Below are positions 25,369 to 41,684 of a stretch of DNA of 64,000 nt, piece after piece. Below the pieces are notes generated by a model. That model was not told where the DNA came from and did no database searches. It saw only the letters and a list, made by a program, of their open reading frames with translations. Within the stretch, counting starts at the first letter, position 1. Each line of letters opens with the position of its first letter. The position numbers and the translations under genes were made by a program. Source of the DNA: a virus. The stretch is taken from IMG/VR virus record IMGVR_UViG_3300044712_000340, positions 1-64,000 of that record; one strand, given 5' to 3'.

Positions 25369-27690
25369 ATGAAACTTAATTATTTAGGTACAAAAGTAAA
25401 TGGTATTGATACTGGGGATTTTGAAGTATTTAAATCTTGGGTAATACAACAAAAGAAATTAGGGTTAGATTTGGAATCCAATGTCACCCAATCCATACTA
25501 GACAGGTTCTTAGTTACTGTTCAATTAGCAAATAAAGAGGAGACTTGGAGTTTTCAATGGTCATTTTTAACTTCTAAACAACAACAATTTATACTAGACA
25601 GACTAAATAAATCAGATATACTTTATATAATTCATGGAAGTACTTTTGAGTATACTTTATTACTAAAATATGGGGTAAGGCTTAAGAATATATGGGATAC
25701 ATATAGAGCAGAACAAGTATTGAATAAAGGAAGAGGCATAGAACAATCTCAATTTGATTTAGGTTCTGTAATATTTAAAAGATTTGGAATCACATTGAAT
25801 AAAGAACTTCAAACTTCTTTTGGTGACAATGTAATGACTAAAGAAAAAGTTTATTATATGAATATGGATGTAGCTAAGTCTGTAGAATTATATGAAATTC
25901 AATTAGGTGAGATGAAATCGTTTGATAAAGCATATCCTCAGAAATTTCATAAAGGTTTAGTTAAAACTATGTGGTGGGATAATGAATTTGCTTTAGTTGC
26001 TGGAGATTTAGAGTATCAAGGTGTAGTATTAGATACTAATAAATGGATGGAATGCTATAATAAATACTACCCTAAAATGTTAGAAGCTAAAGCTAAATTA
26101 GATGCTATTGTAATAGAAGAGTTTAGTGATTTTGCTAAAGGACAAGGTTGGTTATCAGATGTTGATAGATTTGAATCTATATGGGGAAGTACAGAAAAGA
26201 AAAGGGAAATACTGAAATTAGTATTTCCTAATATTGAATCTGTAACTAAATTAGGATTAAAAGAATATCTTAGAGATAATGATCCTGATTTTCCTAATGA
26301 ATTAAAAGACAAAAAAATAGTTGTAACTAAATGGAATGAGGATAAAACTCAAACTATAGAAGAAATAAAGTATAAATCTTTATTAAATACTAAACAATGG
26401 GATAATCATAAATATGAAAGGGATTTAAATAATAGTAAATACGATTTAATAAAGCTTTTACTTATTACAGGTAAAGACGAAGATTATACCCCTAATCTAA
26501 ACCAATTCTTCTATAAGAATTTTCCAGAGTTTATGTTAGAACATGAATATGTTATTCCTGCTAATACTTTAAGTTTAAACTGGGCTAGTCCTTCTCAAGT
26601 ATTGGATATATTCAAGCAAATAAAACCTACTATAGAAGATACTAAAGCATTAACTGTAGAAGATAACTTATTAACTCATAAACTATTTAAGGCTTACGAG
26701 GAATTTAAAGAGTATATTACTTTAGTTACTAAATACGGCCCAGAGTATTTAAATCATGTACAAGTTGACGGTAGAATTAGAACAGTCTATAATACAGTGC
26801 TGGCAACTGGACGTTTATCAGCAAAAGAACCCAACATGCTGGGCCTACCCAGGAATAATGATTATAGAGCTTGTTTCACAGCTCCTGAAGGATTTAAAAT
26901 AATAGACGCAGACTGGGACAGTCAAGAATTAACTATAATAGCCTCATTATCAAATGAATATATATGGTTACACCATTTAGAGTTAGCTCATGACCTACAT
27001 TCTGTTAATGCTGAGATTGTGTTGGAAGATGAATGGAAGAACAATGCTTTAGATGATTGTAATTATTATAAGAATTTTGATAAATGTAAATGCCCTAAAC
27101 ATAAAGAGCAAAGAACTTTTATTAAATCTATTGACTTTGGATTAGCTTATGGTTTAAGTGCTTATGGTTTAGCTGCTAGACAACATAAAACAGAAGAAGA
27201 AGCTAAGCTTGTAATAGATAAGTTTTTCTCTAAATTTACTAAAGTAAAAGAATTTTTAGATAAATGCGGAAAATTTGCAGTAACTTCTAGTATGATAAAT
27301 AACAGTGCTCTAGGAGGTATAAGATTCTTTGATAAATGGAAAACTGCTAAAAAACAAGACTATACAGGAATGTGGGTATATGCTAATCCTGAAGAAGCTA
27401 GAGGTGTTATGAGAGCTGGAATGAATTATCCTATTCAATCTTTTGGGGCTGATTTATTAAAAGTAGCTTTTGTACTTTTAAGAAGATGGATTATTAATAA
27501 CAATTTGACTAAAAATATTCAAATAGCACTTCCATATCATGATCAAGCTATACTATATGCCGATAATGAGCATACTATACTAGCAGCAGAAAAGCTAGAG
27601 TATTTTATGAAACTATCAGGCAAGTTGTTATTAAAGAATGATTTACTTAGAGCTAGTGCTTCAATAAGTGATTTTTGGAAAAAAGATTAA
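25369..27690 (+). CDS. polA: DNA polymerase family A with 3'-5' exonuclease
   Basis: ExoI LDLES, ATGRLS..PN, motif A DWDSQEL, motif B KSIDFGLAYG, NYPIQS, motif C YHDQ. Confidence 0.95.
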   Translation: MKLNYLGTKVNGIDTGDFEVFKSWVIQQKKLGLDLESNVTQSILDRFLVTVQLANKEETWSFQWSFLTSKQQQFILDRLNKSDILYIIHGSTFEYTLLLKYGVRLKNIWDTYRAEQVLNKGRGIEQSQFDLGSVIFKRFGITLNKELQTSFGDNVMTKEKVYYMNMDVAKSVELYEIQLGEMKSFDKAYPQKFHKGLVKTMWWDNEFALVAGDLEYQGVVLDTNKWMECYNKYYPKMLEAKAKLDAIVIEEFSDFAKGQGWLSDVDRFESIWGSTEKKREILKLVFPNIESVTKLGLKEYLRDNDPDFPNELKDKKIVVTKWNEDKTQTIEEIKYKSLLNTKQWDNHKYERDLNNSKYDLIKLLLITGKDEDYTPNLNQFFYKNFPEFMLEHEYVIPANTLSLNWASPSQVLDIFKQIKPTIEDTKALTVEDNLLTHKLFKAYEEFKEYITLVTKYGPEYLNHVQVDGRIRTVYNTVLATGRLSAKEPNMLGLPRNNDYRACFTAPEGFKIIDADWDSQELTIIASLSNEYIWLHHLELAHDLHSVNAEIVLEDEWKNNALDDCNYYKNFDKCKCPKHKEQRTFIKSIDFGLAYGLSAYGLAARQHKTEEEAKLVIDKFFSKFTKVKEFLDKCGKFAVTSSMINNSALGGIRFFDKWKTAKKQDYTGMWVYANPEEARGVMRAGMNYPIQSFGADLLKVAFVLLRRWIINNNLTKNIQIALPYHDQAILYADNEHTILAAEKLEYFMKLSGKLLLKNDLLRASASISDFWKKD

Positions 27691-34358: not shown

Positions 34359-35063
34359 ATGGCAGATATTATATTAAATATTGGAAAATCAGGTAGTGGT
34401 AAAACTTCAGGTCTAAGAAATTTACCAGCAGAAAAAACATTTATGATTAGACCAAACAGTAAATCTTTACCTTTTCCTGGTGGAGATAAGAATTTTGTAG
34501 AAGGTAAAAATTTGTTGATTACAGATGCTATGTCTACTGTAAAATCTACTTTGATTCAAGCTAGTAAAGCAGCTAATAATCCTTATAAGTACTACATAAT
34601 TGAAGATTTAAATCATTTCTTTAATGCAAGAACTACAAGTGATGCTTTTATAGCTCAAAATTCAGGGGGTGCAGCTTTCAGTAAATGGAATCAATTTGCA
34701 GCAGATATTATACAATCATTTATTGTAGTAGCTAAAGCTTTACCAGCAGATAGTTATTTGATTATCTTAGCTCATACAGAGGAAAAAGATGATGGTACTA
34801 TTGGAATGCAAACATCAGGTAAATTGTTAGAAAGTAATCTTTATATTCCTGGATATGTAACTTATGTATTACATAGCATGATTACAGGGGATGCTAAAGA
34901 TCCTAATTATGTGTATTTAACTAATGCGGATGGATTACATTTAGCTAAATCACCGGCAGGTAGTTTAGATAAAACTATGCCTAATGATATGTACAAAGTT
35001 GTATTAGCTGTAGACGCTTATAAAAAAGGTGAAAGTAAAGTTCAAGTTAAATGGAAAGAATAA
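34359..35063 (+). CDS. AAA ATPase (Sak4/AAA_24-like)
   Basis: GKSGSGKT, IIED, ILAH, AKSP. Confidence 0.8.
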   Translation: MADIILNIGKSGSGKTSGLRNLPAEKTFMIRPNSKSLPFPGGDKNFVEGKNLLITDAMSTVKSTLIQASKAANNPYKYYIIEDLNHFFNARTTSDAFIAQNSGGAAFSKWNQFAADIIQSFIVVAKALPADSYLIILAHTEEKDDGTIGMQTSGKLLESNLYIPGYVTYVLHSMITGDAKDPNYVYLTNADGLHLAKSPAGSLDKTMPNDMYKVVLAVDAYKKGESKVQVKWKE

Positions 35064-35851: not shown

Positions 35852-36886
35852 ATGTGTTTAGTAGATGAGTTAGTAAATGAAAGCTTGTCTATTACAAACA
35901 TATTAAGGTATATTGATGATTACTCAATATATTCTAAATATATAGGAGAAGAGTTAGAGTTAAATACTTGTTACTCTTCTCCCATTAGAGAAGGGGATGA
36001 TATACCTTCCTTTTGTTTGTATAAGACAAATAATAAAATTAAATTCAAGGATTTTGCAAGAGCAGAACTGAAAGGAGATATTTTTGATTTTGTAAAAATA
36101 CTTATAGGAAAGGAAAAATTCAAAGAAATCCCCTTGTATAGAGTATTACAACAAATAGATTCTGATTTTCAATTAGGTCTATATACAGATGTAGGAGAGT
36201 TACCTAAACTACAAATAAGAAAAATAAGTGATATTAAAGTTAAAGATAAATACACTATTAATGTTACTTCCCACAAAATACCAACACAAGAATTTACAGA
36301 TTATTGGGAAAATAAATATGATATAACAGAGGATATATTAAAAATGTACAATTGTACCAATCCTCAAATATTACACTTTACCTCTAAATCAAATAAATTT
36401 CATGTATACCCTAAAAGTTTATGCATATCTTATCAGATAGGAGGAAAATATAAAATTTATTTTCCATTCGAACATAAATCAAAAAAATTCAGAAATGACT
36501 TTCCTTCCAATTGGGTAGAAGGTTATATGCAACTAAAAAGGAAGAATAATTTCTTTATTATAACTAAAGCCATGAAAGAAGTTATGTTTTTTAGAAAGCA
36601 TTTTGATTGGGACACAGTAGCAGGTAAATCAGAAACTACGATGATACCAAATCATCTTATGATAAAACTCTTTAATGATTATGAAAAAGGTTATATATGG
36701 TTAGATAGGGATGAAGCAGGTAGACAATCTCAAAAAGATTATATTGCTAAATACCCTAATTTAATACCAATAGTATATCCTGATTATATAACACAAAAAG
36801 ACGTAACTGATAGGTATGATTTTATGAAACAGGCTGGATTACAGCAAATTGCATTAAATGAAATAAAACAATTAATAAATAAATAA
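35852..36886 (+). CDS. DNA primase (TOPRIM)
   Basis: SPIRE.D..PSF, FKDF, WLDRDEAG, KDVTD. Confidence 0.85.
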   Translation: MCLVDELVNESLSITNILRYIDDYSIYSKYIGEELELNTCYSSPIREGDDIPSFCLYKTNNKIKFKDFARAELKGDIFDFVKILIGKEKFKEIPLYRVLQQIDSDFQLGLYTDVGELPKLQIRKISDIKVKDKYTINVTSHKIPTQEFTDYWENKYDITEDILKMYNCTNPQILHFTSKSNKFHVYPKSLCISYQIGGKYKIYFPFEHKSKKFRNDFPSNWVEGYMQLKRKNNFFIITKAMKEVMFFRKHFDWDTVAGKSETTMIPNHLMIKLFNDYEKGYIWLDRDEAGRQSQKDYIAKYPNLIPIVYPDYITQKDVTDRYDFMKQAGLQQIALNEIKQLINK

Positions 36887-36889
36887 AGT

Positions 36890-37498
36890 ATGAAAACAAT
36901 TAAATTAAAGTTATTAACTCAAAATCAATTACAACCAATTACAACAAATGCAAGTACTTTTGCAGAATTTAAAGCAGATGAACAAGTTAAAGCTTTAGGT
37001 ATTGATTGGAGTAGTCATAAATTAATAGACAGGGCTACAAGGGCTACATTTGAATTGGACGAAGCTAAGATGCCAGAAGTAGACTCCATCATGTTTGTTA
37101 CCCCTACTAAAACTAAATCAGGCATGTTATCTTATAAAGAAGCCAAAGAAGAAATTCAAAAACTTATATCTGAAGGTAAAATTGAGAAAATCAGTTGGGT
37201 AGGTAAATCCACTAAAGATTTGAATGATCTTTTACAAAAATCTTTTACAGAAAAAACTGGGAAATTAGTTACTGAAAAAGTAGCACAAGAATTAAACGAA
37301 AAGGATACTATTGTAGAAGAAATTCAAGAGTTACTTACTAAAGTATCTAACAAAGTAAATGAATTATCTAAATTATCAGGTAATGATACTTCTGTTCTTG
37401 CTAAAGAACTTAAAGAGTTTAAAGAAAACTTAGCAGATTTTGTCACTAATGATGATCTAACTAAGGAGTTAAAAGATATTCAAAGCAGACTTAAATAA
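36890..37498 (+). CDS. Ubiquitin-like (beta-grasp) protein with C-terminal extension
   Basis: 78-aa N-terminal domain ending KTKSG; adjacent E2/JAB/E1 genes. Confidence 0.6.
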   Translation: MKTIKLKLLTQNQLQPITTNASTFAEFKADEQVKALGIDWSSHKLIDRATRATFELDEAKMPEVDSIMFVTPTKTKSGMLSYKEAKEEIQKLISEGKIEKISWVGKSTKDLNDLLQKSFTEKTGKLVTEKVAQELNEKDTIVEEIQELLTKVSNKVNELSKLSGNDTSVLAKELKEFKENLADFVTNDDLTKELKDIQSRLK

Positions 37499-37502
37499 TA
37501 GT

Positions 37503-37524
37503 AAAGAGCCGAAAGGCTCTTTTT
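37503..37524 (+). terminator. Intrinsic terminator between Ubl and E2 genes
   Basis: AAAGAGCC-GAAA-GGCTCTTT-TT. Confidence 0.85.
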
Positions 37525-37543
37525 CATTTTAAATAGTTATAAA

Positions 37544-38743
37544 ATGGTGATACCAGAAGAATTATTAAAAATGTCAGAAAAAGAGCTTAAAGAGGCTCTA
37601 CCTGATAATATATTTAAAGCAACCTACATACAACATCACTCAGAAATATATAAAATACTACATAAATTAAATAAAATTTTAACTGTTTATTCTTACACTG
37701 ATAAAGTTATCACTACAATATCTAATCAATTACACGAGGATTACTATGAGCCTTTTACAATAAGTAGCTTTAAAATTGCAGTAGAAAGTAAGAGAGAAAA
37801 ATATTTAAAAACTTTAGATGTAGATAAGTTCATTAATTGGATAGAAAGTGTAGTAAAATCTTATATAGACGAAGATAAATATGATATACAAAAAATAAAT
37901 GAAAGTAGAGTAGAGTTAATACTATACTATCCTGAAATATCTATTACTAATAGTGTAGAATTTAAGCATACTTTAAGAGATGTATATTTAAAGTATATAT
38001 TTATTAAATCAAAAAATCTATGGGGATTTAATTCTATATCTATGTGTAGAAATACTTATACTGAAAAAGAATGGTTAGATTATTATATGCATTCTCATAT
38101 CGCTGTGTCTTACTTAAATTCATATTCTTCTAGTTTTTGTATGGGCAGTAATACTCCTACAAGTAACTTGTTAACTCAGTTTCAAAAAAATTTATTAAAA
38201 TTTAGAGAATTTATACTATTATTTGAAGCTTATTTAAGTTGGGAAAGCATAGAAGGTAAACCTTATAGGTATATAGAAAATGTATTGAAACCTATAGAAG
38301 CTAATTATGATTTTATAGGTTTAGAAGTTATACCTGATTACATTACTGTAGTATATACTTTAACTAAAAGAGTTTTAAGTATTTTACAAGATATACAATT
38401 TGACTATATTCCTCTTGTATTTAGTAGAAATTACACTATTATATTAAAACAATCTACTGTAGATGAAATAGATGAACTACTTACTAAAGAATACCCTGAG
38501 TATTGTTATACTGTTTTAGATGACAATACAGTAAAATTAAAAGAAAGAGTTAGATTAACTGTAAATGGTAAACATACTGATATTTATTTTAAAGGTGAGA
38601 ATAAATTAATAACTATAATCCCTGAAAAAGATACAGTTAAAGAAGATTTACCTATAAAAATACATAGAAGTTTATTAAATTCAGTAACAAAAGAGATTAA
38701 AGAGCAATTCGAACAATTTATAATTAATAAAATATTAGGATGA
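37544..38743 (+). CDS. Prokaryotic E2-like conjugating enzyme
   Basis: HSH(183-185)...FC199MG signature; operon context. Confidence 0.65.
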   Translation: MVIPEELLKMSEKELKEALPDNIFKATYIQHHSEIYKILHKLNKILTVYSYTDKVITTISNQLHEDYYEPFTISSFKIAVESKREKYLKTLDVDKFINWIESVVKSYIDEDKYDIQKINESRVELILYYPEISITNSVEFKHTLRDVYLKYIFIKSKNLWGFNSISMCRNTYTEKEWLDYYMHSHIAVSYLNSYSSSFCMGSNTPTSNLLTQFQKNLLKFREFILLFEAYLSWESIEGKPYRYIENVLKPIEANYDFIGLEVIPDYITVVYTLTKRVLSILQDIQFDYIPLVFSRNYTIILKQSTVDEIDELLTKEYPEYCYTVLDDNTVKLKERVRLTVNGKHTDIYFKGENKLITIIPEKDTVKEDLPIKIHRSLLNSVTKEIKEQFEQFIINKILG

Positions 38744-39759: not shown

Positions 39760-40405
39760 TGATAGATTTAAAGACGCTCCTTGGTACAATCAAAGTTGTA
39801 ATGAAGAAATATTAGTTGTAGGAGCAGGAGGTATAGGCTCTAATTTTGTTTATTGCTTGGGTAAATCTACTTTAATGAGAATATTTTTAATGGATTCAGA
39901 TAAAGTAGAATATCACAATGTAGGTACACAGTTTTTCACAAAAGAAGATGTAGGGAGTAATAAAGTACGGGCAATGTATGAATACATGAGTAAATGTAAT
40001 AGGTACATTGGTACGATACAAAGAAGGTATGATAGCTCATTTTCTCCAATTATGGTAGCTGCTGTAGATAACATGAAAACTAGAAAAGAGATATTCGATG
40101 CATGGAGGCAAAAAGAAAATAGAGAGCTATTACTTGATGGTAGATTGCGTGCAAATTATTATGAAATTTATGCTGTTATTTCAGGTAAGGAAGATGAATA
40201 TGAAAAAACATTATTCTTAGATTCAGAAGTAGACTCAGGGCCTTGTACATTTAAGCAAACAGCTTATTTTGGTATGTTGATAGGAGCTAGAATGACACAA
40301 ATAATAGTTAATTACTTAACTAATAAGTATTCAGAAGAACCTATTTGTAATGTACCATTTAAAGTCAGTGAATTTGGTGAACCTTTTAGTATAGAAATAT
40401 TATGA
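39746..40405 (+). CDS. ThiF/E1-like activating enzyme
   Basis: GAGGIG, D.D.VE..N...Q, AVDN...R, DGR, Cys167. Confidence 0.9.
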   Translation: MSQFNDRFKDAPWYNQSCNEEILVVGAGGIGSNFVYCLGKSTLMRIFLMDSDKVEYHNVGTQFFTKEDVGSNKVRAMYEYMSKCNRYIGTIQRRYDSSFSPIMVAAVDNMKTRKEIFDAWRQKENRELLLDGRLRANYYEIYAVISGKEDEYEKTLFLDSEVDSGPCTFKQTAYFGMLIGARMTQIIVNYLTNKYSEEPICNVPFKVSEFGEPFSIEIL

Positions 40406-40902
40406 TTTTAAAAAGAAATGATAAGATTTTACCATTGATTTTTACTTTGCCTGAGTATGAGAATTCTAAGTATATAGACCTAGTGTTTCCAACTTATTGT
40501 TCTACTGTGTATAAAGAATCAGCATATAATTTTGTTACTGATAATAATCATGGGTATGTACATAGAACAAGGTATAATGAGTACTATAAGACTTTCTATT
40601 TAGGAATAATAGATAAAAAAGAAGAAAGTATAATTTCAATGTTAGTAAAGTACAATAATGAAAATTATTTATTATTATGTAAAGATTTTGCAGAAAAAAA
40701 CACAAGTGCTACAAGAAAAATAAAGAAAAGCGCAGTAGAAACATATAACATAGATGTAAAAAAGAAATTAATACTAGCTGAAGAAAGCGAATTATATGAA
40801 TATTATTTAAAACTTATAAGTCCTACATTTGAAGATTATAAACAAGAGAATAAAGTAAAATTAGCTAAAGAATTTATAGAATGGAAGAAAAACAACGATT
40901 AG
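40402..40902 (+). CDS. Hypothetical protein coupled to E1 gene
   Basis: ATGA overlap. Confidence 0.65.
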   Translation: MILKRNDKILPLIFTLPEYENSKYIDLVFPTYCSTVYKESAYNFVTDNNHGYVHRTRYNEYYKTFYLGIIDKKEESIISMLVKYNNENYLLLCKDFAEKNTSATRKIKKSAVETYNIDVKKKLILAEESELYEYYLKLISPTFEDYKQENKVKLAKEFIEWKKNND

Positions 40903-41684
40903 CTTTAATAGATTTAGATACTTTAATTTATATTGTGGCTTATAATCAACACAAGAATGGTAATAGAGACAATTCTGCACTAGTAAAACTACATGTAAAG
41001 GAATTTATATCTACCATTCTTGTAAGGTGTAGAGCTAACTTAGTTTCTATGGTTTATCAAGACAAAGGACACAGTAACTTTAGAAAGTATTTTTATCCTG
41101 ATTATAAAGCTAATAGACCAGAAGCTCCTGAATTTATAGTATTATGGAAAGATACTATAATAGAGATTTTCTCAGAAATAGGGGCTGTAGGTGTCAAAGT
41201 AATAGAATCAGATGATGTATTAAATATAGGGTACAATAGATTTAAAAATGAATATGATTTAATAATAGTTTCAGGGGATAAAGATTTAAATCAAATACCA
41301 GGTGAACATTACAATCCTAGAGAAAACAAAAGTTATGTTGTTAGTAACAAGGAGGCATTGTATAATCTTAGTTTACAGTTACTTATGGGGGATTCTACAG
41401 ATAATGTGAAAGCTATCCCTAAAATGGGAACTAAAATATCCTCTAAACTTTTAAATGAAGTATTAGGAAATACTGATTTAACTTTTTCTTTTATAGGTAT
41501 TTGTTATGATCAGTATAGAAAAGCTTTTGGAGATATTTGGTATTCTGAGTATTTAAAAACTAAGTTTTTAGTGACAATGTTACCTGAAATAGATTATAAT
41601 TCTTATCCATTTAATCAAGAAGTATCTGAATTATTTAATATAATACCTTGTTCTAATTTAATAGTAACTAGTGTATTTATGTAA
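40881..41684 (+). CDS. 5'-3' exonuclease / RNase H (FEN-like)
   Basis: IDLD, YKANR, ESDD, SGDKDL.Q, GDSTDNV. Confidence 0.92.
   Translation: MEEKQRLALIDLDTLIYIVAYNQHKNGNRDNSALVKLHVKEFISTILVRCRANLVSMVYQDKGHSNFRKYFYPDYKANRPEAPEFIVLWKDTIIEIFSEIGAVGVKVIESDDVLNIGYNRFKNEYDLIIVSGDKDLNQIPGEHYNPRENKSYVVSNKEALYNLSLQLLMGDSTDNVKAIPKMGTKISSKLLNEVLGNTDLTFSFIGICYDQYRKAFGDIWYSEYLKTKFLVTMLPEIDYNSYPFNQEVSELFNIIPCSNLIVTSVFM

Follow-up and report, generated by a model that had tools for sequence, protein, structure and literature searches.

Why does a virus encode a ubiquitin-like (Ubl) domain fused to a long helical extension, and why does a terminator-like hairpin separate this gene from neighboring genes for E2-like, JAB, and E1 proteins? 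The question is raised by the gene at 36890-37498 (+) in IMG/VR virus record IMGVR_UViG_3300044712_000340. The sequence studied here, called the window, comprises positions 1-64,000 of this complete 93,532-bp record, which has direct terminal repeats. The open reading frame (ORF) is the only long frame at that position and ends with the stop codon TAA at 37496-37498. An original prediction, made from the DNA letters alone, had described the product as a precursor that is cleaved by JAB at the end of the Ubl domain.

The explanation developed below seems probable when taken as a whole. In a crAss-like phage, the gene would encode the precursor of a ubiquitin-like modifier, in which the flexible end of the Ubl runs directly into a 124-residue passenger. 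The JAB/JAMM peptidase encoded in the same operon most likely cuts the Gly78-Met79 bond. Once the carboxylate of Gly78 is exposed by this cut, the small ThiF-type E1 could adenylate it, and the Ubl could then be passed to Cys199 of the E2-like protein and from there to lysines of target proteins. The passenger, with a head predicted as helix-loop-helix, a spacer that varies, and a C-terminal motif that is conserved, would be a separable module made in a 1:1 ratio with the Ubl. Targeting, a pro-domain function, and the recruitment of partners are candidates for its role. The hairpin and its T-tract most likely end part of the transcripts, and the translationally coupled genes for the E2-like protein, JAB, E1, and a 166-residue protein would be expressed only via read-through, at a level below that of the precursor. 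I infer cleavage, activation, conjugation, and termination from the sequence features, folds, conservation, and synteny that were observed.

An AlphaFold2 model of the 202-residue protein was built from a 29-sequence alignment. Residues 1-70 form strands and helices in beta-grasp order with a predicted local distance difference test (pLDDT) score of 80-92. The score falls to 56 at residues 71-80, between two better-modeled parts, and helices follow. The Foldseek list for the N-terminal domain consists nearly entirely of ubiquitin, ISG15, and NEDD8 (E values 0.05-0.3, probability about 0.9, template modeling (TM) score by target about 0.53), and includes the bacterial Ubl of a Ubl-deubiquitinase complex (8tyx). 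VIA re-alignment against ubiquitin gave Z scores of 4.4-4.7 and a root-mean-square deviation of 2.6-3.0 Å over about 60 residues. In these alignments, model residues 1-72/74 correspond to ubiquitin residues 0-71/73, i.e., to all of ubiquitin. Thus, Gly78 lies at the end position of ubiquitin's C-terminal tail. The scores are modest and the matches are consistent, and the model supports the assignment of residues 1-78 to a ubiquitin-type beta-grasp.

The end of the domain reads P-T-K-T-K-S-G78, where Gly78 is encoded by ggc at 37121-37123 and the atg of Met79 is the next codon. The original prediction had placed Met and 124 further residues behind this glycine. The positions of Gly78 and Met79 hold, but the total after the glycine is 124 residues with Met79 counted (M-L-S-Y-K-E-A-K...). 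It had also proposed a check on the conservation of the K-S/A-G motif. When this check was run, Gly78 was found to be invariant in all 29 homologues, and the surrounding motif P-T-K-[TS]-x-[SA]-G is nearly fixed in a Ubl domain with a mean pairwise identity of 66%. The residue after the glycine varies (Ala in 18 homologues, Met in four, Gly and Val in two each, and Thr, Ile, and Leu in one each). An equivalent glycine is present in FpV4, crAss001, DAC15, cr128_1, cr85_1, Dulem virus 41, cr106_1, and 80 IMG/VR loci. The alignment and the model together support an invariant Gly78 that lies in a low-confidence linker, at the domain boundary. Separate production of the tail from an internal start codon at Met79 was also considered, and was rejected because Met follows the glycine in just four of the 29 homologues.

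Is the fusion common outside the window? All of the 29 homologues (166-244 residues) are fused proteins with 84-163 residues beyond the glycine, and no homologue of 30-110 residues was found by a word-based search. A profile search among 1.84 billion representatives yielded 650 clusters (50% identity) at E ≤ 0.001, and 148 of the best 150 of these clusters are longer than 115 residues. Family members include crAss001 gp79, DAC15_91, and an FpV4 protein. Relatives of 120-123 residues, which start at an internal M-F-V of the Ubl, look like 5′-truncated calls. A direct tblastn search with the window precursor gave no match in GenBank phages, and the link to FpV4 and crAss001 was made via the E1 match and profile comparison. 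Matches to the E1 turned up in phages of Flavobacterium psychrophilum (the FpV4 group) and in crAss-like phages of the Steigviridae. A comparison of the window family with crAss001 gp79 by hhalign gave a probability of 94.7% (E = 5.7e-8), and the alignment spans the Ubl, the glycine, and the first 45 residues of the tail. The same gene order was found in FpV4, crAss001 (gp79-gp76), DAC15 (DAC15_91-88), cr128_1, cr85_1, and Dulem virus 41: a primase, the Ubl-tail protein, a protein of about 400 residues, a JAB protein ("metalloprotease domain"), and a ThiF protein. The fusion is present in 80 of 80 crAss-type IMG/VR loci, with tails of 118-169 residues, and eight IMG/VR loci of the window's own type share the synteny. 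Neither the precursor nor the E2-like protein matches a PHROGs family. These comparisons support the fusion as the usual form in a large family of phages.

If the fusion is so widespread, is it cleaved at all? The beta-grasp might remain attached permanently, as the Ubl domain at the N-terminus of a scaffold or adaptor, like those of the Ubl-UBA shuttle factors, while JAB, E1, and the E2-like protein act on some other substrate. The near universality of the fusion and the conserved segments of the tail agree with such a protein, and integral, non-conjugated Ubl domains are common in eukaryotes. However, the invariant glycine coincides with the domain boundary and comes at the end of a basic, extended stretch like that of ubiquitin, and an E1 requires a free C-terminal carboxylate. 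No other beta-grasp gene is evident in the ORF listings of the inspected loci, although the neighboring small ORFs were not searched by fold. A natural split of the gene also speaks against the uncleaved protein. In uncultured phage cr106_1 (MT774378.1; L010:722-1925), an HNH endonuclease gene (L010:1002-1517) lies between a Ubl ORF and a tail ORF. The Ubl ORF has 92 residues and ends with K-S-G-K-F-stop. The tail ORF has 130 residues; its start shows the pattern of the tail head, and its last 50 residues share 38% identity with the end of crAss001 gp79. Thus, the break lies two residues past the glycine of a protein encoded by one gene in crAss001, and the terminator follows the tail gene rather than the Ubl gene. 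This means that the Ubl and the tail can be separate polypeptides. The split is the best comparative evidence for the glycine as a putative functional boundary, and a permanently uncleaved Ubl domain is quite improbable. The reading of the gene as a precursor appears well supported by comparison.

In three crAss-type IMG/VR loci (L065, L074, and L080), another ORF starts a few nucleotides past the stop codon of the Ubl-tail gene, and no terminator is present there. This ORF begins with M-V-E-I-W-R-P-I-Q-E-Y-E-G-L-Y-E-V-S-N-L-G-N-V-K-S and resembles a homing endonuclease by eye. Insertions may recur in the junction region.

The labels E2, JAB, and E1 that the original prediction had given to the downstream genes fit their products, which show a predicted UBC-like fold with an invariant Cys199, a full JAMM motif, and a Pfam ThiF match of 57.7 bits, respectively. 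In the JAB protein, E33, H98, H100, S108, and D111 are invariant in seven sequences and make up the JAMM motif E ... H-x-H-x7-S-x2-D. Residues 96-125 have a weak match to Pfam Prok-JAB (E = 0.066), and the crAss001 homologue gp77 is annotated with a metalloprotease domain. Does this JAB bind the precursor? A complex prediction with JAB residues 1-190 and precursor residues 1-120 scored 0.54, versus 0.01 for the best of three controls. The runs share at least 74% of contacts, and the partner pLDDT is at least 81. The mark used for such predictions was reached by 58 of 80 solved complexes and by two of 110 mismatched pairs; with a score of 0.60 or less, it was reached by only seven of those 80 solved complexes and by both passing mismatches. 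The prediction used custom alignments, and JAB-Ubl complexes have already been solved, so the pass may reflect likeness to them. The modeled contacts lend weak support to a JAB-precursor complex.

The E1 protein has a single Pfam ThiF domain (PF00899) at residues 20-193, with an E value of 1.2e-15 and a score well above the cut-off of 28.1. The sequence GAGGIG occurs at residue 26, and Cys167 is conserved in nine of nine aligned sequences. Relatives in the PDB are Uba1, MccB, UBA3, UBA5, Cap2, and ThiF (E about 1e-6). The crAss-type E1s (cr106_1, L010:4482-5693; crAss001 gp76, L011:7760-8911) have an N-terminal extension of about 165-180 residues, which is absent from the E1s of the window and FpV4.

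The AlphaFold2 model of the E2-like protein has a pLDDT of 85.8 and contains a UBC-like core at residues 86-250, approximately. In the VIA wide search, this core matched Ubc9, UbcH5b, E2 J2, Ubc13, Cap2, BubB, and UEV/RWD domains with Z scores of 5-6.2. Residues S184, H185, and C199 are invariant, and C199 lies just ahead of the helix 205-215, as in E2s. Two other parts of the protein may be mentioned here. Residues 1-85 (37544-37800) are modeled as a small beta-barrel, for which the only high-probability Foldseek rows are those of a PWWP domain with single-stranded DNA (6kco, probability 0.95-0.99, E 0.03-0.05). This barrel could be a nucleic-acid-binding or target-binding module. Residues 286-360, approximately (38399-38623), are modeled as strand-strand-helix-strand-strand and have faint matches to SAMP1/MoaD (E 0.03-0.04, far below the cut-offs). 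This C-terminal part may be a second beta-grasp domain.

An E1 of this kind raises another question: is the Ubl a protein tag? The Ubl might be cleaved and activated but serve as a sulfur carrier that forms a thiocarboxylate, like ThiS, MoaD, CysO, and QbsE, for example for nucleotide or DNA modification. The E1 consists of a minimal domain of the ThiF/MoeB type, with ThiF models as its best NCBIfam matches (all below the cut-offs), the genes lie within a block of nucleic acid metabolism genes, and the processing of sulfur-carrier Ubls by JAB proteins has been discussed by Iyer et al. 2006 (PMC1779556). These points speak for a sulfur carrier. On the other hand, the scanned neighbors include no rhodanese, cysteine desulfurase, or sulfur-accepting enzyme, the E2-like protein with its invariant cysteine is a fixed member of the operon, and the Ubl has a single Gly in place of the Gly-Gly of ThiS and MoaD. 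A sulfur carrier is very improbable, and conjugation to proteins is preferred.

What, then, is the passenger? In the model, the tail (residues 79-202) consists of a helix at 82-94, a loop or coil at 95-107, and helices at 108-163 and 168-201, the latter two forming a helical hairpin (pLDDT about 50-75). The original prediction had called the region a coiled coil; its helical nature is seen in the model, but a helical hairpin in a segment of 15% identity is predicted instead. The head (residues 79-117) can be aligned between Flavobacterium phages and Bacteroides phages, including FpV4 and crAss001 gp79, while the middle (residues 118-177) varies in length and is poorly conserved. In the window family, the tail ends with L-A-D-F-V-T-x-D-D-L-x-x-E-x-x-x-[LI], in which T186 and E193 are nearly invariant. 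In the crAss-type proteins (L011:5100-5178 and the 80 IMG/VR loci L017-L096), the last 12 residues contain E-I-[DN]-x-M-F-[DAN]-[FG]. The E-I-[DN]-x-M-F part of this motif resembles QADMF, the clamp-binding motif of E. coli Pol III alpha (PMC3664792).

It had also been predicted that the tail is HeH/LEM-like and possibly binds DNA. No match to HeH, SAP, LEM, or Rho_N in Pfam was found at E values up to 10 with the window tail, the 29 family members, or the crAss and FpV4 tails, although motifs of this length easily escape detection. The tail-head alignment, compared as a profile with the PDB, returned chance matches only, an ESM Atlas search with residues 79-202 returned generic helical models without a usable feature match, and the list of the VIA wide search with the whole model was filled by generic helical hairpins. 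The tail model shows a helix-linker-helix pattern, but the second helix extends to residue 163. Thus, a helix-loop-helix pattern is all that is seen of the HeH/LEM-like domain, and the label is not supported. Two relatives, L008 and P0116, look more SAP-like by eye.

Since the central part of the tail shows little conservation and differs in length among homologues, and no known domain was found in the tail, the whole tail might be a mere pro-domain or handle. It would keep the Ubl inert, offer the junction to JAB (or to the E2-like protein), and be discarded with no function as a free product. The Bil Ubls function with overhangs of just 1-9 residues (PMC10557695; 10.1101/2023.09.04.556158), which also suits this idea. 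However, two segments of the tail are conserved from Flavobacterium phages to the crAss-like phages of Bacteroides, and in cr106_1 the tail survives intact in a gene of its own, complete with a terminator. A role purely in cis would hardly account for such a gene. A discarded pro-domain is therefore somewhat unlikely, and a passenger with a function of its own is preferred. One form that such a function might take is a targeting device: with the head on DNA and the C-terminal motif docked on a replisome component, the precursor would be parked at replicating DNA, and JAB would free the Ubl there, confining tagging to replication proteins of the host or the phage. If this were true, the locus would give a virus its own tagging system in bacteria, directed to particular sites, but the idea is a long shot.

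What separates the precursor gene from the enzyme genes? A strong GAAA-loop terminator had been predicted between them, and a terminator-like hairpin is indeed present: a stem of 8 bp (4 G-C) capped by a GAAA loop lies at 37503-37522 and is followed by TTCATTTTA. The folding free energy (dG) is -12.2 kcal/mol (z = -3.7), and none of 200 shuffled sequences folds as well. In a stricter scan, this is the only terminator-like site on the + strand between 25352 and 43534. The stem begins 4 nt after the stop codon of the precursor gene, and 12 nt lie between the T-tract and the next ATG (37544). The four downstream genes, from that of the E2-like protein to that of the 166-residue protein, mutually overlap (by ATGA, 14 nt, and ATGA); the precursor gene alone is set apart.

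A hairpin with a T-run lies 3′ of the Ubl-tail gene in 12 of 13 inspected loci (the window, six IMG/VR relatives, FpV4, crAss001, DAC15, cr128_1, and cr85_1), and all stems differ. A uniform criterion was then applied: a hairpin with dG ≤ -10 kcal/mol that ends at a run of at least five T within 110 nt of the stop codon. Such a structure follows the Ubl-tail gene in 75 of 79 crAss-type loci (30 distinct sequences, median dG -23.8) and 4 of 433 other + strand genes of the same loci. Three of the four exceptions have a gene inserted right after the stop codon, and in the other, the T-run of the hairpin is interrupted. The terminator keeps its position, while its sequence varies.

Since the ATG lies just 12 nt past the T-tract, any transcript that covers the enzyme genes has to run through the hairpin. 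The simplest reading of this forced read-through is partial termination, with more precursor than enzymes. A promoter would not fit into the short gap between the hairpin and the start codon that follows, and an excess of modifier over enzymes can reasonably be inferred. The hairpin may instead be a full boundary of transcription units, or a site that stabilizes or processes the RNA 3′ end, with the enzyme genes transcribed independently. A sigma-70 promoter scan gave only the chance number of matches and does not cover promoters specific to crAss-like phages, and the hairpin reads as a terminator on either strand; both points would allow such a boundary. Against it, no minus-strand genes lie near the precursor gene in the ORF listing, and the short spacers on both sides of the hairpin mean that the enzyme transcripts must begin upstream and cross it. 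A boundary or a processing site is thus unlikely, and attenuation is preferred.

Several observations weigh against the precursor and attenuation scheme. The fold matches are modest, both in the Foldseek E values of the Ubl and in VIA, where the Ubl stays below a Z score of 5 and the E2-like core reaches 5-6. The Ubl ends with a single Gly, not with Gly-Gly. Two short relatives, of 79 and 81 residues, end one and five residues past the glycine; they come from contigs of 2092 and 670 nt, are perhaps truncated, and were not counted as stand-alone Ubls. The E2-like protein has no Pfam E2 match, has S-H in place of the canonical H-P-N, and found no UBC match when its model was compared with the PDB by Foldseek, the UBC likeness coming from the VIA wide search only; the name "E2-like" is used because of these three points. 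The JAB profile has no significant match to solved JABs among PDB sequences, and the support from the complex prediction is weak. Dulem virus 41 (PP511520.1; L014:4001-5802) has no terminator, and its Ubl-tail gene overlaps the next gene (ATGA), which indicates that the terminator is not obligatory. Lastly, the phage's own promoters may provide a separate transcription start upstream of the hairpin.

How does the module compare with known systems? The original prediction had likened it to the eukaryotic ubiquitin-ribosomal protein fusions. In these fusions and in polyubiquitin, a peptidase cuts after the C-terminal Gly and the products arise in equal amounts. The eukaryotic fusions differ from the phage module in that the deubiquitinases are Cys proteases, the cut follows Gly-Gly, and the passenger is a ribosomal protein. 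The comparison is fair as an analogy, while BubAB of Type I Bub, the Bil overhangs, and lambda TAPI are closer precedents.

The Bil systems have the gene order Ubl-E2-JAB-E1, and their JAB protein (BilC) cuts after a conserved Gly (PMC10557695). The overhangs of 1-9 residues are trimmed by BilC before E1 activation (Chambers et al., PMC10557695; Hor et al., 10.1101/2023.09.04.556158). The phage module shares this gene order and the conserved Gly followed by extra residues. However, the phage proteins have 84-169 residues after the glycine, BilA often has two beta-grasp domains, and BilD is a multidomain E1 (IAD-AAD-CYS), in contrast to the single-domain phage E1 of 219 residues. Moreover, Bil is a host defense system, while the module described here is encoded by phages. 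A PADLOC scan found no BilA, BilB, or BilC match at E ≤ 0.1; the E1 core partially matches BilD (1.3e-6) as well as Cap2-type E1-E2 models. Because BilA, BilB, and BilC are unmatched, the phage module is placed outside the Bil and Bub families.

In Type I Bub, the Ubl is fused to E2 as BubAB, and the JAB of BubCD cuts right after a conserved Gly and frees the Ubl (Ye et al. 2024, PMC11601596). Here too, the Ubl is the N-terminal part of a longer protein, and its release by JAB is known in Type I Bub, whereas in the phage module it is the predicted step. The differences are considerable. The Bub passenger is an E2, while the phage tail is helical and non-enzymatic, with no UBC-like region. The Bub JAB is fused to E1, while the E2-like protein, JAB, and E1 of the phages are three separate ORFs. 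Type I Bub has DUF6527/BubE, and no DUF6527 match was found among the scanned neighbors of the phage module. Bub acts via oxyesters, whereas the phage E2-like protein and E1 keep conserved cysteines. Type I Bub is located in bacterial defense loci, and the phage module in replication modules of lytic phages.

The TAPI protein of phages lambda and T1 has an N-terminal Ubl and a small C-terminal domain, and is predicted to be cut at the last Gly of the Ubl by the neighboring JAB protein TAPK (Iyer, Burroughs and Aravind 2006, PMC1779556). It thus resembles the phage module as a phage Ubl with a small C-terminal domain and a neighboring JAB. TAPI differs in having a Gly-rich linker and in being encoded among tail-assembly genes without E1 or E2; the likeness is one of description, homology aside.

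The principle of Ubl precursor processing is therefore already known from Bil, Type I Bub, and lambda TAPI. New are the long, conserved, and non-enzymatic passenger, the minimal E1, the setting in the replication module of lytic phages, and the conserved terminator. Literature searches on ubiquitin-like and ThiF proteins in crAss-like phages, and on gp76-79 of crAss001, brought up no paper that deals with the module. Bacterial ubiquitin-like conjugation has so far been characterized as host anti-phage defense (Bil, Bub, and CBASS Cap2/Cap3). Here, a full kit is carried by lytic crAss-like phages beside the primase gene, and three of the carriers are cultured: the Flavobacterium phage FpV4, DAC15, and the gut phage crAss001 (gp79-gp76). 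Should cleavage and conjugation prove true, one of the most abundant groups of human gut phages would run its own tagging pathway, with a built-in second product at a 1:1 ratio and a simple transcriptional route to more tag than enzymes. The cultured phage-host pairs make every step testable.

The features of the locus are listed in Table 1. The precursor gene sits within an 18-kb co-directional block of replication genes.

Table 1. Coordinates of the Ubl-tail locus and of the surrounding replication genes in the window
Feature	Position	Strand	Remark
DNA polymerase	25369-27690		replication block
Two helicases			replication block
Sak4-like ATPase	34359-35063		replication block
Primase	35852-36886		replication block
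Putative Ubl-tail precursor gene, 202 residues	36890..37498	+	homologue of crAss001 gp79
Predicted ubiquitin-like beta-grasp domain, residues 1-78	36890..37123	+	ends with the invariant motif P-T-K-[TS]-x-[SA]-G
Conserved first part of the tail, residues 79-117	37124..37240	+	40% mean pairwise identity
Variable helical middle of the tail, residues 118-177	37241..37420	+	15% mean pairwise identity
Conserved C-terminal motif of the tail, residues 178-202	37421..37495	+	36% mean pairwise identity
Intrinsic-terminator-like hairpin and T-tract	37503..37531	+	
E2-like protein, 399 residues	37544..38743	+	
JAB/JAMM metallopeptidase, 339 residues	38740..39759	+	helical domain at the C-terminus
Minimal E1, ThiF-type adenylation domain, 219 residues	39746..40405	+	
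Conserved 166-residue protein	40402..40902	+	no family match
5′-3′ exonuclease	40881-41684		replication block

The gene for the 166-residue protein starts on the stop codon of the E1 gene, and no family match was found for its product in the profile scans made. Five IMG/VR relatives (L002, L004, L005, L006, and L008) encode a protein of 167-208 residues in the same position, and in another relative (L001) the ORF at this position has 108 residues and is cut by the end of the locus. The protein is likely the fifth member of the operon, and is perhaps a target or an adaptor. One of these relatives has an extra ORF of 110 residues (L005:6615-6947) between the Ubl-tail gene and the gene for the E2-like protein.

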